From assembly GCA_031459385.1 (NCBI GenBank), contig JAVKIP010000029.1, positions 1 through 27,733 on the forward strand: 27,733 nt of DNA, given 5' to 3'. This stretch comes from Candidatus Fervidifonticultor secundus. Its GTDB lineage: Bacteria > Sysuimicrobiota > Sysuimicrobiia > Sysuimicrobiales > Humicultoraceae. The position numbers and the translations under genes were made by a program. Positions 13,494-25,925 of this stretch are shown here, in pieces (positions within the stretch are counted from its first letter, which is position 1; every line of letters starts with the position of its first letter). The notes below the pieces were generated by a model, which saw only the letters and a list, made by a program, of their open reading frames with translations, ran no database searches and was not told where the DNA came from.

Positions 13494-13571
13494 CGGGGCG
13501 TAGCGCAGCCTGGTGAGCGCGTCTGCTTTGGGAGCAGAAGGTCGGCGGTTCGAATCCGCCCGCCCCGACCA
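13494..13571 (+). tRNA. tRNA-Pro (anticodon TGG)
   Basis: Acceptor CGGGGCG/CGCCCCG, anticodon arm TCTGC-TT TGG GA-GCAGA, T-loop GTTCGAATC, discriminator A and encoded CCA. Confidence 0.97.
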
Positions 13572-21880: not shown

Positions 21881-21956
21881 GGGCCCGTAGCTCAGTGGAT
21901 AGAGCCACCGACTTCTAATCGGTTGGGCGGGGGTTCGATTCCCTCCGGGCCCGCCA
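21881..21956 (+). tRNA. tRNA-Arg (anticodon TCT)
   Basis: Acceptor GGGCCCG/CGGGCCC, D-loop with A20 (Arg identity), anticodon arm ACCGA-CT TCT AA-TCGGT, GTTCGATTC, encoded CCA. A -10 TATACT lies at 21832-21837. Confidence 0.97.
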
Positions 21957-21994: not shown

Positions 21995-23395
21995 TCAGCG
22001 GCTGGTCCCGGGCGGCGCCGGCGGGCGCTTTTGGTGCCAGTCCGTCTCGCGCTGGAAGCGCATCCCGATCTGCAGCAGCGTCGCCTCGCCGAAGAGCGGG
22101 CCCGTCACCGCCAGTCCCAGCGGCAGGCCCTGCGGCCCGAAGCCCATGGGCACGCTGAGCGCCGGCACGCCGCACAGCGCGCCGAGCACGCTCCAGTTGC
22201 CGCGCGGGCGCGGGGTCGTCTTCAGGTTGGTCTCCAGGGGCACGGCCTCGGTCATGAGCGAAGGCGAGAGCAGGGCGTCGAACCGCTCGAACAGGGCCAG
22301 GACGTCGCGCCGGATGCGCCACCGCGCCTGCTCGGCCCGGACCTGGTCGGCGGCGCGCAGGCGCAGCGACGCCCGCAGGCCGTCTTTCTGTTCTCGATCC
22401 ACCAGAGCCTCGAGCCGCTTGCTGGCGATGAACTCCTGGTGCGCGGCCGCGATTTCGCCGTTCAGCAGGGTGCGGGCCACCTGCTCGTACGGGTGCTCCG
22501 GCAGCCGTGCCTCCGCGATGCGCATCCCCGCCCGGCGCAGGACCCGCACGGCCTCGTCGAAGGCGCGCGCCAGCGCCGGGGCACCCGTGAACTCGGCGGG
22601 CAGAATCCCCAGGCGCCAGGGCCGTCGGACGACGCGCGGCACGAATTGGAAGAACCGGCCGGCGGTCGTCGGGTCCTGGGGGTCGGGACCGGCGATGGCT
22701 GCCAGCACCCAGCCGCAGTCCTCGGCCGTGCGCGCCATCGGTCCGATCTTGTCCATCGTCCAGGCCAGCTCCATGGCGCCGAAGCGGCTGACCAGGCCCC
22801 AGGTGGGCCGCAGGCCTGTGATGCCGCAGTAGGCCGAGGGCGTCACGATGCTGCCCCAGGTCTCGGAGCCGAGTGCATACGGCACGAGCCCGGCGGCCAC
22901 GGCGCTGCCCGACCCCGATGACGACCCGCCGGCCCAACACCGGAGGTTCCACGGGTTCAGGCCCGGGCCGTGGAGCGACGCGCTCGGGTACGCATAGCCC
23001 CCGCCTCCGGCCAGTTCCACCATGGCCAGCTTGCCGGCCAGCACCGCACCGGCCTCGGCCAGCCGCCGCACCACGGTCGCATCGTAGGCAAAGACCTGGC
23101 GGCGGTGGGCAGGCGACCCCCAGCGGGTCGGGATGCCCCGCGTGGCCAGTAGGTCCTTGGCCCCGTAGGGAATGCCCTGCAGTATCGAGGTGAGGCGCCC
23201 CTGGCGGAACCAGCGGTCGGCCCGGCGGGCCTGGGCCAGTGCCAGTTCAGGCGTCAGCGCGGCGAGCGCGTTGTAGGTCGGGCCCAACCGGGCAAGGCGG
23301 TCCAGCGCGAGACGCGCGAGCTCCACGGCCGAGACCTCACGCGCCCGCAGGGCGCGGGCCAGCTGCGCGATGGTGGCGAAGGCGTCGGATGACAC
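21995..23395 (-). CDS. Amidase-signature family amidase (GatA-like fold, stand-alone)
   Basis: GIPYGAKDL, NPWN...AGGSSSGSG, GSETWGSI..PSAYCGITGLRPTWG (Ser-cisSer-Lys triad); SD GAGGAG. Confidence 0.92.
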   Translation of the reverse strand: MSSDAFATIAQLARALRAREVSAVELARLALDRLARLGPTYNALAALTPELALAQARRADRWFRQGRLTSILQGIPYGAKDLLATRGIPTRWGSPAHRRQVFAYDATVVRRLAEAGAVLAGKLAMVELAGGGGYAYPSASLHGPGLNPWNLRCWAGGSSSGSGSAVAAGLVPYALGSETWGSIVTPSAYCGITGLRPTWGLVSRFGAMELAWTMDKIGPMARTAEDCGWVLAAIAGPDPQDPTTAGRFFQFVPRVVRRPWRLGILPAEFTGAPALARAFDEAVRVLRRAGMRIAEARLPEHPYEQVARTLLNGEIAAAHQEFIASKRLEALVDREQKDGLRASLRLRAADQVRAEQARWRIRRDVLALFERFDALLSPSLMTEAVPLETNLKTTPRPRGNWSVLGALCGVPALSVPMGFGPQGLPLGLAVTGPLFGEATLLQIGMRFQRETDWHQKRPPAPPGTSR

Positions 23396-23566
23396 CGGTT
23401 TCGGCTCCTCTCGTCAGAAGCGCTGATCCCGAACCGCCTGTGAGCCTTTCGGCGGCTGCCCGGGGCGCAGCGTCCTGCGAGACTCTCGGTCGCTGCCCGG
23501 GCCCCAGCGCACGGTGAAGGGTTCGTGTGCCGCCTGGGCCGGCCCCTGCTGCGCACCGAGCGCGCA

Positions 23567-23575
23567 TGGTATACT
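23567..23575 (+). promoter_or_regulatory. Extended -10 promoter, probably giving a leaderless mRNA
   Basis: TG-g-TATACT ends 6 nt before GTG 23582; no clear SD. Confidence 0.6.
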
Positions 23576-23581
23576 AAATAG

Positions 23582-24412
23582 GTGAAATCCTCTCACGACA
23601 CGGCACTACAGCGCGATCCCCGGGCAATCGTCGAACTCTATGCCGACCGCGCAGCCGGGCTCTCGGCGGAAGAGATCGCGGCGAAGTACAACCTTCCGGC
23701 CCCCGCCGTCTACCGGTACCTGCGGTCCACACATCAGGCCTGCGGGCTGTGGCGGCCGTACGACTACCGGACAGCGCCGCCGCCGGCCGACGCGGCCGTG
23801 CAGATCTACTGGCTGGGCTACCTGACGGCCAGCGGCCGGGTCCTGGGGCAGGGCAACGCCGCCACCCTCGTGCTCGCGATCCACCCCCACGACGAGCCGC
23901 ACGTGCAGACGCTCGTTGCCGACCTCGTGCGCGGCCACCCGCGGGTGGAGTTCGCCGACAGCAGCCTGGAGGGCCGGCAGGCCTACGTGCGCGATCCTGT
24001 GCTGGCCGAGGTCCTGCTGCAGTGGGGGCTTGCGAACAGCCTGGCGGCGGCGTCGGTAAGCCTCGACTACGTGCCGGCGGCTCTGGCGCCTGACTTCGTG
24101 CGGGGATATCTCGAGGGCAGCCGACGCACCCCGCCGTTTGGGGGGACCCGCCTGACGCCGGCCCCGCCGGGGCGCAACGCGCGGCTCGTGCTGGTGGGTC
24201 CGCCGACGCTCGTCGCGAGCCTGCGGCGTGTGCTGCGGACCACCTGCGGTGTGCAGGAGGGCGTCGTGGAGCCGACGCGCCAGGCGGGCCTGGTCGCGCT
24301 GTCGTATGCGGCGGCTGATGGAACGGCTATCCTGGCCCGAGCCTATCACCGGCCGGTGCGGACCGGGCCGCGGGCCGTCCGGTTCGTCGCACGCTTCGCG
24401 TCACCACGCTGA
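23582..24412 (+). CDS. N-terminal HTH plus degenerate double-motif LAGLIDADG-fold protein
   Basis: HTH GLSAEEIAAKYNLPAPAVYRYLR; LAGLIDADG-like helices YWLGYLTASG (aa 76-85) and FVRGYLEGSR (aa 172-181). Confidence 0.75.
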   Translation: MKSSHDTALQRDPRAIVELYADRAAGLSAEEIAAKYNLPAPAVYRYLRSTHQACGLWRPYDYRTAPPPADAAVQIYWLGYLTASGRVLGQGNAATLVLAIHPHDEPHVQTLVADLVRGHPRVEFADSSLEGRQAYVRDPVLAEVLLQWGLANSLAAASVSLDYVPAALAPDFVRGYLEGSRRTPPFGGTRLTPAPPGRNARLVLVGPPTLVASLRRVLRTTCGVQEGVVEPTRQAGLVALSYAAADGTAILARAYHRPVRTGPRAVRFVARFASPR

Positions 24413-24445
24413 CACCCACAACGCCGAAGGAAGGAGCGCATCACG

Positions 24446-25528
24446 GTGAGCGCAGGGGCCTCAGTGTTTCCCCCGATCTTCGACGGGCACAACGATACCA
24501 TTCTCAGCCTGGTCCGTACCGGGCGGTCGTTCTTCGAGCGCTCCGAGATCGGGCACGTCGACCTGCCGCGTGCCCGACAAGGTGGCCTGGGAGGCGGGTT
24601 CTTCGCCATCTACCTGCGCGACCCCGCCCTCGCCGACGTCTCGGCGGCAGACGGCGCGGCCCTCGAGCGCGCGCTGCACATCTACGGCGACGAAGCGCGC
24701 TGGCCCGAGCCGATGGCGCTGGACTATGCGCAGCCCGCCGCCCTGGACCTCTTCGGGCGCCTGTTGCGCCTCGAGCGGCACGCCGGCGGTCTCGTCCGGA
24801 TCGTGCGGACCGCCGCGGAGCTCCAGGCCTGTCTGGACGGCGGCGTCTTCGCGATGCTCATCCACTTCGAGGGCGCCGAGCCGCTGGACCCCGACGGCCA
24901 CGCGCTGGACGTCTTCCACGCTGCGGGGCTGCGCTCGGTCGGGCTCACCCACAGCCGGCGCAACCGCTACGCGCAGGGCGTGCCGTTCAAGTTCCCGCAC
25001 TCGCCCGATACCGGGCCGGGGCTGACCGACGCGGGCAAGGCGCTGGTCCGGCAGCTGAACGAGCGGCGCATCATGATCGACCTGTCGCACCTGACCGAGC
25101 GAGGATTCTGGGATGTCGCCGCCATCAGCGACGCGCCCCTGGTCGCCACGCACTCCAACCCCCATGCGCTGTGTCCGTCGCCGCGGAACCTGACCGACCG
25201 CCAGCTCGACGCCATTCGGGAGCGCCGCGGGGTGGTGGGGCTCAACTTCCATGTGGGGTTCCTGCGCGCGGACGGGGCGAGGGACCCCGCCGTGCCCATC
25301 GCGCGCATGGTGGAGCACATCGACTACATGGTGGACCGCATGGGCCTCGACTGCGTCGCGCTGGGGTCCGACTTCGACGGCGCGGTGATGCCCGCCGACC
25401 TGCACGATGCCAGCGGCCTGCCCCGCCTCCTGCAGGCGCTGGCGGCCCGCGGCTACGCGCACGACGACCTGCGCCGGATCGCCCACGGGAACTGGGTGCG
25501 GGTGCTGCGCGAGACCTGGGGCGCCTGA
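24446..25528 (+). CDS. Dipeptidase, peptidase M19 (renal/membrane dipeptidase family)
   Basis: FDGHND, HVDLPR, HFEGAE, GLTH, IDLSH, ATHSN, RNLTD, LGSDFDG, GNW.RV; SD AAGGAG. Confidence 0.94.
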   Translation: MSAGASVFPPIFDGHNDTILSLVRTGRSFFERSEIGHVDLPRARQGGLGGGFFAIYLRDPALADVSAADGAALERALHIYGDEARWPEPMALDYAQPAALDLFGRLLRLERHAGGLVRIVRTAAELQACLDGGVFAMLIHFEGAEPLDPDGHALDVFHAAGLRSVGLTHSRRNRYAQGVPFKFPHSPDTGPGLTDAGKALVRQLNERRIMIDLSHLTERGFWDVAAISDAPLVATHSNPHALCPSPRNLTDRQLDAIRERRGVVGLNFHVGFLRADGARDPAVPIARMVEHIDYMVDRMGLDCVALGSDFDGAVMPADLHDASGLPRLLQALAARGYAHDDLRRIAHGNWVRVLRETWGA

Positions 25529-25697: not shown

Positions 25698-25814
25698 AGT
25701 ACGAGTAGCAGCAGGTTCCGAGAATAGAAAACTGGACCCCATCGCCGCACCCGGAGAGTGCATACCTTGCGTCGCATCTCCGCCAGGGTGGGGTCCTGCA
25801 TAGCACGCAGGCGT

Positions 25815-25894
25815 AGATGGACGCAATGAACCCGTCCCACTAGATGACGTGGACGCCTCGGGGACGGGTGAGCGAGTGGCGTAACCGGCCATCT
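25815..25894 (+). ncRNA. c-di-GMP-II riboswitch aptamer
   Basis: P1 AGATGG/CCATCT; A; P2 CGC/GCG; kink-turn AAT-GA.../GA; P3 ACCCGTCCC/GGGACGGGT; pseudoknot TGG-ACGCC (25850-25857) with GGCGT-AA-CCG (25878-25887). The conserved UGAGnnAGUGGnnnAACCG pattern is present with compensatory changes. Confidence 0.88.
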
Positions 25895-25925
25895 CATTCG
25901 CGGGAGTGGGGTGGCCGTTGTGTTT
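25886..25925 (+). terminator. Riboswitch expression platform: intrinsic terminator overlapping the aptamer 3' end
   Basis: 14-bp stem CGGCCATCTCATTC (25886-25899) / GAGTGGGGTGGCCG (25904-25917) including G-U pairs, followed by TTGTGTTT. Confidence 0.75.

Follow-up and report, generated by a model that had tools for sequence, protein, structure and literature searches.

A helix-turn-helix protein with a degenerate LAGLIDADG core in Candidatus Sysuimicrobiota: a probable host-retained, nuclease-dead descendant of phage-type homing endonucleases

What is a protein used for when it has the fold of a homing endonuclease, but no longer the residues with which such enzymes cut DNA? This question is raised by a gene on a contig of Candidatus Fervidifonticultor secundus, which belongs to Candidatus Sysuimicrobiota (formerly CSP1-3); the whole stretch of DNA analysed here, 27,733 nucleotides long, is called the window. 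A preliminary description, made from the letters of the sequence, had read this gene as a LAGLIDADG endonuclease that was domesticated, independently of WhiA, into a DNA-binding regulator with an N-terminal helix-turn-helix (HTH). After the analysis reported below, we consider, with a probability of roughly 0.7, that the product of this gene descends from a free-standing phage-type homing endonuclease composed of an HTH and a LAGLIDADG part, and that it has lost nuclease activity and been retained by the host. The gene, called the focal gene in what follows, and the modules of its product are these:

23582..24412, + strand: focal gene, HTH plus double LAGLIDADG, 276 codons for 276 amino acids, with a GTG start immediately behind an in-frame TAG
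23618..23725, + strand: N-terminal three-helix HTH, amino acids 13-48, of resolvase/homeodomain-like type (helices 13-24, 29-35 and 40-48 in the model)
23792..24031, + strand: LAGLIDADG domain 1, with highly conserved strands and a negative net charge
23807..23839, + strand: degenerate LAGLIDADG motif 1, YWLGYLTASGR, amino acids 76-86, with S84 in place of the catalytic Asp
24077..24349, + strand: LAGLIDADG domain 2, amino acids 166-256, basic and more variable, its first strand turned into a conserved PPFGG loop
24095..24124, + strand: degenerate LAGLIDADG motif 2, FVRGYLEGSR, amino acids 172-181, with S180 for the catalytic Asp and R181 for the Gly of the motif

The serines of the two motifs, S84 and S180, stand 96 residues apart. 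Neither the protein nor its family is recognised as LAGLIDADG by the usual sequence searches: the LAGLIDADG families of Pfam do not match the window's protein even at E 10, their models find nothing at E<=1 among 55 family members, the NCBIfam scan of the focal protein returns 0 families, and a HMMER search of the PDB sequences with the single protein gives one match only, at chance level (E 0.3). When the PDB is searched with the family profile, the best match is the HTH of P1 ParB (E 0.043) and no LAGLIDADG chain appears. The HTH is matched by Pfam below threshold at amino acids 15-49 (best family HTH_IclR, E 0.0016, amino acids 16-49). Since the Pfam, NCBIfam and PDB-sequence searches are blind to LAGLIDADG here, the reading of the motifs needed an independent test; the relationship is visible only to fold comparison and to profile-profile comparison.

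A word-indexed search gave 72 homologues (E 2e-176 to 4e-62), of which the named ones are called 'hypothetical protein' and come from Armatimonadota-labelled metagenome-assembled genomes (MAGs), with the exception of one that bears an automatic 'AcrR family' label. The window's protein and 54 of these homologues make up an alignment of 55 sequences (A1), on which an AlphaFold2 (AF2) model was based; its mean predicted local distance difference test score (pLDDT) is 88.7 and its predicted template modelling score (pTM) 0.90. In the model, helices 71-84 and 166-179 each run into a sheet. Domain 2 is built of helix 166-179, a loop at 181-200 which occupies the place of the first strand, and then a beta-alpha-beta-beta-alpha succession; the PPFGG of this loop is nearly invariant across the family. 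In a wide PDB search with VIA-align, ranks 1 to 15 were all LAGLIDADG chains, and unrelated rows begin below Z 7.9. The best structural match was I-DmoI (Z 15.9, root-mean-square deviation (rmsd) 2.5 Å over 168 residues, model residues 68-261, 13% identity), and WhiA was matched with Z 12.7 for the T. maritima protein (3hyi) and Z 11.9 for the S. venezuelae protein (8dy9 chain I). Among the PDB matches listed by Foldseek all are LAGLIDADG (21 at E<=1e-3); they include the bI3 maturase, I-DmoI, I-Tsp061I and WhiA, with the bI3 maturase (2ab5) at the top (E 1.6e-4). The N-terminal 50 residues resemble the DNA-binding domain of GcrA (Z 7.1, rmsd 2.0, 47 aligned) and also the HTH domains of Tc3 transposase, resolvase and Hin (Z about 6). 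The AF2 model together with the Foldseek and VIA-align matches thus confirms, at the level of a predicted structure, that the focal protein is an HTH followed by a two-domain LAGLIDADG core of the monomeric-enzyme type. The preliminary description had seen an HTH and then two LAGLIDADG-type helices 96 amino acids apart, and had proposed a Foldseek comparison with I-DmoI and WhiA as a check: the positions of the motifs and the predicted fold both agree with it.

From which proteins, then, does this architecture come? A HMMER search of 1.84 billion representative proteins returned 47 at E<=1e-3; the 18 at E<=1e-10 are the family itself, and the others lie between E 1e-7 and 1e-3. These distant matches are mostly about 220-370 amino acids long, with one of 931. 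A Pfam scan that covered 32 of the 47 (5 closer, 27 distant) found LAGLIDADG_3 (PF14528) in 26 of the 27 distant relatives, usually behind an N-terminal HTH (HTH_7, HTH_23, HTH_28), and no Pfam family in the 5 closer ones. Among the 22 sequences that we inspected (5 closer, 17 distant), the distant ones have canonical motifs; 16 distant PF14528-bearing relatives form a second alignment (A2), called the canonical set below, whose consensus, YWLGFxxADG and FIRGYFDGDGS, bears out the typical motifs with which those of the focal protein had initially been compared. Aligned profile to profile with hhalign, A1 and A2 match with a probability of 99.8% and E 2.5e-29 over 255 columns, comprising the HTH and both LAGLIDADG domains. 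With the phage family phrog_4645 ('endonuclease'), the window's protein scores E 1.4e-5, and the four canonical relatives that were tested score E 1e-40 to 1e-60. The nearest clusters of the ESM Atlas, beyond the protein's own cluster, are PF14528 clusters, mostly of tailed phages, and among predicted viral structures Foldseek aligns the protein over its full length with phage endonucleases of 265-330 amino acids (best E 5e-10), the alignments spanning 267-292 columns. This means that the focal family belongs to the LAGLIDADG superfamily, by its fold and by its homology to PF14528 proteins. Moreover, because the profile homology is full-length and includes the HTH, the order of HTH and then LAGLIDADG was inherited whole from a phage-type free-standing endonuclease. 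The preliminary description had presented this order as the reverse of that of WhiA: the HTH is indeed N-terminal, but the arrangement is not a new assembly, as the hhalign and phrog_4645 matches trace it to phage-type enzymes.

The phylum also contains other LAGLIDADG proteins. When it was searched with the canonical profile, LAGLIDADG open reading frames (ORFs) with intact DG motifs were found only sporadically. There are HTH-less LAGLIDADG ORFs of 198-240 amino acids at L095 (G025:C98), L097 (G014:C141), L099 (G015:C29) and L100 (G049:C62); both motifs, ...TDGC and ...DGDG, are intact in L095, L099 and L100, and L097 is truncated ahead of motif 1. Scattered genomes of the phylum also contain many frames of intein size (800-1300 amino acids). 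Judging from their sequences, the sporadic HTH-less ORFs and the intein-sized frames are likely to be active or recently active mobile endonucleases.

We merged A1 and A2 and compared the 24 positions at which the canonical set shows little or no variation. S84 is aligned to the canonical D77 (invariant) and S180 to D177 (D in 15 of 16). At position 84 the family has S, T, C, A or G and at position 180 S, G, A or T, and an acidic residue is found in 0 of 55 rows at either position; the replacement of both metal-binding Asp by Ser, pointed out for the window's protein in the preliminary description, is therefore the local form of a loss common to the family. The canonical G178 has become Arg (R181) in 53 of 55 rows, the canonical invariant K151 is replaced by P, L, A, S or T (the five commonest residues, 49 of 55 rows), and the canonical invariant K247 by A, T or S. 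What is kept is the scaffold: Y76, W77, G79, Y/F80, A83, G85, I100, D104, H107, L145 and G149 in the first half, and R174, G175, E178 (for canonical D175), G179, Y255 and R264 in the second, E178 being invariant (55 of 55 rows). A wider census of 142 rows (database proteins and genome translations, duplicates included) has an acidic residue at position 84 in 0 of 142 and Asp at position 180 in 3 of 142, all of them divergent members of the type found in family f4 of the phylum sample described below. In the same census an Arg stands beside each of the former acids, R86 in 130 of 142 rows and R181 in 115 of 142.

The metal-binding residue of I-CreI is D20. The catalytic residues of I-DmoI are D21 and E117, according to the accessible part of a 2012 review (PMC3384342). 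These two enzymes are the reason why we read the penultimate position of the motif as the metal-binding one. That residues of the fold are kept while catalytic and conserved charged residues are replaced is, as far as an alignment can tell, the mark of a scaffold preserved for a different use, and the catalytic and mobility features that define a homing endonuclease were not found in the sequences of the focal family. The three rows that keep the Asp of motif 2, P0080, L053 (G071) and L056 (G073), read GYAEGDW or GYADGD at this place, and the acid of motif 1 is absent from them; they may stand for a half-way stage of inactivation or for a nickase with a single site.

The distribution of the family was studied in a phylum sample of 94 species genomes (Sysuimicrobiota/CSP1-3, all of one order) that fall into seven families, f1 to f7. 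Matches were found in 71 of the 94 genomes, mostly in one copy, and the window's own genome has 1 match. Leaving out this last genome, which is the 71st, the counts are 29/33 in f1, 1/1 in f2, 20/22 in f3, 20/23 in f4, 0/12 in f5, 0/1 in f6 and 0/1 in f7. Completeness ranges from 59 to 94% in the nine genomes of f1-f4 that lack a match. Two matches per genome are seen in genus g26 of f4, and several f4 genomes have two paralogues. Outside the sample, a scan of one genome per species (185,579 species), made with two family-specific peptide patterns that divergent members elsewhere could escape, found 34 loci, all in MAGs, of which some bear the label Armatimonadota, Ca. Fervidifonticultor, Ca. 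Calidihabitans, Ca. Nitrosymbiomonas or 'Bacillati bacterium ANGP1'. As far as these searches reach, the family is restricted to one candidate phylum.

We then asked whether the gene follows its hosts. A quick maximum-likelihood tree was built from 47 genome-derived sequences and 6 canonical outgroups. In it the family is one clade (support 100 in the Shimodaira-Hasegawa-like approximate likelihood ratio test, SH-aLRT), and so are f3 (98) and f4 (99); most genera cluster, and g2 is spread over several branches. The dN/dS ratios after Nei and Gojobori (NG86) are 0.03-0.34 in the 40 closest pairs, which are interrelated like the genomes counted above and hence not independent, and in which dS above about 1 is near saturation; for the window's gene against two congeners dN/dS is 0.22 and 0.25, with dS 0.64-0.70. 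Between congeners, in the three genomes of genus g1 (L001, L017, L019), the focal protein is 76-77% identical, against 88-89% for the amidase and the dipeptidase encoded next to it. By these comparisons the focal gene clearly evolves faster than its neighbours, yet under purifying selection. Taken together, the counts, the tree and the ratios support a vertically inherited, single-copy host gene and no patchy or decaying mobile element. The orthologues had been expected to tell a recently decaying endonuclease from a domesticated one: a family of patchy, frameshifted or DG-retaining orthologues was not observed, and the ratios lie well below 1. The proposal of a domestication is thus upheld by the single-copy occurrence in 71 of 94 genomes, the purifying selection and the loss of the catalytic acids.

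With respect to the phage-type HTH and LAGLIDADG_3 endonucleases, the focal family is alike in length class (about 260-330 amino acids), module order, scaffold residues and full-length homology. It differs in that the two catalytic Asp and two invariant Lys present there are replaced, in that the first strand of domain 2 has given way to the PPFGG loop, and in that those enzymes are patchy whereas the focal family appears vertical and single-copy in one phylum.

The setting of the gene in the window is in keeping with a host gene. The following features surround it:

21995-23395, - strand: amidase gene, divergent neighbour (Pfam Amidase, E 1.1e-86)
23396..23581: intergenic spacer between the divergent amidase and focal genes, 186 nt
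23567-23575, + strand: extended -10 element TGGTATACT, which ends 6 nt before the GTG start
24446-25528, + strand: membrane dipeptidase gene, next downstream (Peptidase_M19, E 7e-95)
25844/25994-26416: GerE/LuxR-type regulator ORF beyond the dipeptidase gene (Pfam)

The focal gene is separated from its neighbours by 186 nt upstream and 33 nt downstream. At third codon positions its GC content (GC3) reaches 0.86, the two neighbours having 0.92 and 0.93, and the regional GC of 0.69-0.745 is like that of the flanks, so that the intact ORF with host-like GC-rich codons noted at the outset is recovered. Rfam finds no intron across the window, and the focal ORF is not enclosed in a larger frame. The ORF is not an intein, because it has its own start and stop and spacers on both sides; with neither an Rfam intron nor an embedding frame, the focal gene is therefore neither intron- nor intein-borne, as had also been proposed.

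The preliminary description had also given the gene its own promoter, and here only a part of the claim stood. A generic sigma-70 scan for -35/-10 pairs over 23300-24600 found 0 sites; what does exist is the conserved extended -10 box 6 nt before the GTG. A TGnTAnnnT box lies 6-7 nt (extremes 4-8) before the in-frame start at 33 of 47 unique orthologue loci (20/24 in f1, 1/1 in f2, 11/11 in f3, 1/11 in f4), and before 2 of 245 other genes of those loci, a background that is approximate as these genes were roughly called. In the 33 regions anchored on the box, it is the sole strongly conserved upstream block and is preceded by an A-rich stretch; even among congeners the upstream spacer is poorly conserved, save for the -10 box and the start codon. 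The four f1 loci without the box are those of genera g3-g5, where the sequence is conserved right up to the start, which suggests that the focal gene abuts an upstream reading frame there. Given the spacing of the box, transcription would begin at the start codon (GTG or ATG) or next to it, and we infer that the focal gene is expressed as a leaderless mRNA from its own promoter. The amidase gene appears to have a ribosome-binding site of the GGAGG type in the same spacer.

An expectation-maximization (EM) search of the 33 upstream sequences (widths 10 and 14, 5 shuffles each) returned a motif that scored above the shuffles. We rejected it as an operator because in f3 its best sites fall within the upstream gene, at the conserved 3' end of that gene, and its other sites are weak and unevenly placed. 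The spacer of the window also holds two tandem 37-nt direct repeats, 78% identical (23437-23510, + strand), which show no conservation in two congeneric genomes.

The neighbours of the gene change from clade to clade. The window has its amidase and M19 dipeptidase neighbourhood in common only with the two other genomes of the same genus, G001 and G002, and tblastn with these two proteins gave no match within 1.5 kb of the focal gene at 26 other loci. The earlier suggestion that the flanking amidase and dipeptidase genes are regulated by the focal protein thus loses its ground, synteny being confined to the genus. In wider gene maps, which cover those 21 of 31 loci where a rough gene caller recovered the focal gene (the remaining 10 are omitted), the neighbours in other f1 genera are an AstE/AspA-type deacylase, an ATP-binding cassette (ABC) importer, a short-chain dehydrogenase and a CN-hydrolase, and in f3 a DAO oxidoreductase, a DEAD helicase and a periplasmic binding protein. 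The f3 block (L045-L048) runs from an IrrE-like M78 peptidase through a Ski2-type helicase and the DAO oxidoreductase to the focal gene, and continues with the DEAD-box helicase, the periplasmic binding protein and a cupin; two RNA or DNA helicases are thus found near the focal gene in f3. That enzymes acting on C-N bonds recur across clades (amidase, AstE/AspA deacylase, DAO oxidoreductase, CN-hydrolase) is a weak lead.

Elsewhere in the window, transfer RNA genes lie at 21881-21953 (+ strand), just past the 3' end of the amidase gene, and at 13494-13568 (+ strand), with Rfam scores of 70.6 and 69.3 bits. A cyclic-di-GMP-II riboswitch aptamer is found at 25810-25899 (+ strand; Rfam 54.9 bits against a gathering threshold of 53.5 bits, E 9.1e-10), directly 5' of the GerE/LuxR-type regulator ORF or overlapping its 5' end. 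A cyclic-di-GMP riboswitch before a LuxR-type regulator in Sysuimicrobiota may deserve a look of its own.

What the protein does can be approached from its charge and from its conservation. The mean net charge in the family is +7.3 for the whole protein, distributed as +2.9 for the HTH, -2.6 for domain 1, +5.1 for domain 2 and +3.9 for the C-terminal tail. The strands of domain 1 are strongly conserved (mean frequency of the top residue 0.81-0.92), those of domain 2 less so (0.40-0.72). In domain 1 the invariant residues E123, S127, Q133, Y135 and R137 are predicted to be exposed from the alternation of hydrophobic and polar positions. We therefore propose the following picture, whose parts are not equally secure. 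That the protein is domesticated and nuclease-dead is very probable from its sequences. Having lost DNA cutting, it would bind site-specifically, most likely as a transcription regulator with a conserved target; that it is a DNA-binding regulator, an idea which draws on the presence of an HTH, on the basic net charge of the whole protein and on the comparison with WhiA, we hold to be slightly better than an even bet. Contact with DNA would be made through the HTH, the basic second LAGLIDADG domain and the basic C-terminal tail, and the invariant non-basic sheet of domain 1, with the five residues named above, would either read a conserved DNA site or hold a protein partner.

Could the gene instead be a recently inactivated homing endonuclease of the free-standing kind, decaying as a mobile relic without a function for the host? 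Its descent from a phage-type endonuclease family would be expected of such a relic, as would the lower identity to congeners (76-77% against 88-89% for its neighbours) and the one match, in G035, that is split in two. But a relic should hardly be present in 71 of 94 genomes, almost always in one copy, with a tree congruent with family labels and mostly with genus labels, with dN/dS of 0.03-0.34 in 40 of the 40 closest pairs, with open frames in the matches listed and a promoter element at a fixed distance, and with the same substitutions fixed across the family. This explanation is strongly disfavoured, to the point of being scarcely credible. The protein might, on the other hand, still be a nuclease or nickase which works through other residues, E178 or new acids, and which its host controls as in the case of HO, an active, host-adopted LAGLIDADG enzyme (PMC3384342, in the part of it available). 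The invariance of E178 (canonical D175) in 55 of 55 rows and the three divergent f4-type rows with Asp at the catalytic position of motif 2 speak in its favour. However, E178 is rather an inherited scaffold residue than a replacement, because active relatives carry the matching Asp besides the catalytic one. Furthermore, the acid is missing from motif 1 in 142 of 142 rows and from motif 2 in 139 of 142, two Lys that are invariant in active relatives are lost, Arg stands next to both former acids (130 and 115 of 142 rows), and a like loss in WhiA abolishes cleavage, as stated in the same accessible part of PMC3384342. We regard continued cutting as very unlikely.

A core reused for something other than DNA binding, as an RNA-binding (maturase-like) protein or as a platform for protein-protein contacts, deserves more attention, though we still judge it unlikely. 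Foldseek ranks the bI3 maturase, an RNA-acting LAGLIDADG protein, first among the PDB matches; the net charge of domain 1 is negative, and yet this domain has the most conserved surface-pattern residues; and the LAGLIDADG domain of WhiA may have exchanged DNA binding for protein contacts (PMC3384342, available part). The conserved N-terminal HTH, the basic charge of the whole protein (+7.3), of domain 2 and of the tail, and the lack of any Rfam intron in the window, of an intronic position of the gene and of an evident cognate RNA stand on the other side, and the use of domain 1 for a protein partner fits a domesticated DNA-binding protein as well. Lastly, a dead endonuclease could serve as an immunity protein or decoy which shields an ancestral homing site or a phage site from active relatives. 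Active-looking canonical LAGLIDADG ORFs do occur sporadically in the phylum, and the ancestry is of phage type; but these ORFs are HTH-less and only distant relatives, the context is no defence island (the neighbours are ordinary metabolic genes that differ by clade, as seen without a PADLOC scan), and long vertical retention with one strongly conserved face would be easier to explain by a stable target in the cell than by an arms race. Such a role seems to us highly improbable.

Several observations weigh against the reading of the gene as a host-retained regulator derived from a dead endonuclease, or at least against parts of it. In active LAGLIDADG enzymes both sheets form a uniformly basic saddle for DNA; the net negative domain 1 therefore argues against a classical saddle of this kind. 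No operator-like motif emerges by information content from the 33 regions upstream of orthologues, so that autoregulation is without support, and as the neighbourhoods differ between clades, no regulon can be proposed. The catalytic positions were mapped by sequence alignment to the canonical family, not by residue-level superposition on I-DmoI, and the invariant E178, taken with the three divergent rows that keep the motif-2 Asp, makes residual nicking of one strand compatible with the sequences. As to the distribution, the weak match in G008 (E 4.9e-5) fits the canonical profile better, that in G062 (E 7.1e-4) is a fragment at a contig end, and the focal gene of G035 is in two overlapping pieces. 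In the tree f1 falls into two parts, g3-g5 standing beside f3 at SH-aLRT 90, and the relatedness of genomes and pairs lowers the weight of the counts and of the dN/dS values.

How does the focal family stand to WhiA, the DUF199 protein with which it invites comparison? Both have a nuclease-dead two-domain LAGLIDADG core and an HTH in a vertically inherited bacterial host protein. WhiA lacks the acidic and basic catalytic residues, its first LAGLIDADG domain is negative and its second positive, and its core may serve protein contacts, according to the part of PMC3384342 available; this asymmetry of charge resembles that of the focal family, where the first domain is non-basic and the second basic. 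However, the HTH is C-terminal in WhiA and N-terminal in the focal protein, and WhiA is spread over Gram-positive bacteria while the focal family is found in one candidate phylum. The WhiA families of Pfam do not match the focal protein at E<=10, and HTH_WhiA (PF02650) is found in 0 of the 94 phylum genomes, the control being positive in 4 of 14 named genomes. The focal family is hence not a member of WhiA: its modules come in the opposite order, it is matched by no Pfam model of WhiA, and the phylum has no HTH_WhiA; and since the nearest sequence relatives are the phage-type LAGLIDADG_3 proteins, its origin is separate. The nuclease-dead core in common with WhiA is a likeness in manner of working and no argument for membership.

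The other known systems are further away. I-DmoI, the best match of the core, has D21/E117 and no HTH, is encoded in an intron and is mobile; at the corresponding motif positions, mapped through the canonical relatives, the focal protein has Ser. The LAGLIDADG maturases such as bI3 have likewise lost nuclease activity and taken on another nucleic-acid-binding job, but they are intron-encoded and bind their own intron RNA, whereas the focal gene has no intron and has an added HTH.

In the accessible part of the 2012 review (PMC3384342), WhiA, and no other bacterial regulator, is presented as derived from a dead LAGLIDADG endonuclease. The words LAGLIDADG, homing and endonuclease do not occur in the portions available of the main text of two papers on the phylum (PMC11604079, PMC11962464). 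We found no description of the focal family, or of another nuclease-dead HTH-LAGLIDADG host protein of bacteria, in a literature search whose coverage left out most subscription journals and supplements.

Neither Pfam nor NCBIfam has a model for the family, whose annotation is 'hypothetical'; it would be a second, independent case of the WhiA kind, and one with a traceable ancestor. As the sequences of the ancestor enzymes can still be recognised as similar, the path from nuclease to host protein is open to direct reading: both Asp and two Lys lost, Arg gained beside the former active site, one strand turned into a conserved loop, and divergent paralogues that still have one Asp. As the protein is small and its fold is predicted with high confidence, it should be easy to express for DNA affinity purification sequencing (DAP-seq) and for structural work. 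More tentatively, and with the odds rather against it, we can imagine that a phage endonuclease was captured at the base of four Sysuimicrobiota families and became a lineage-wide WhiA-like regulator in a phylum devoid of WhiA; DNA would be bound by the HTH, the basic domain 2 and the tail, and the invariant non-basic sheet of domain 1 would dock a conserved partner such as RNA polymerase or a sigma factor. If this were true, the design of the transcription factor WhiA would have evolved a second time, fully independently, and with a conserved leaderless promoter. The finding draws attention to a conserved and lineage-specific gene, probably with a regulatory role, in a phylum that is widespread but uncultivated.

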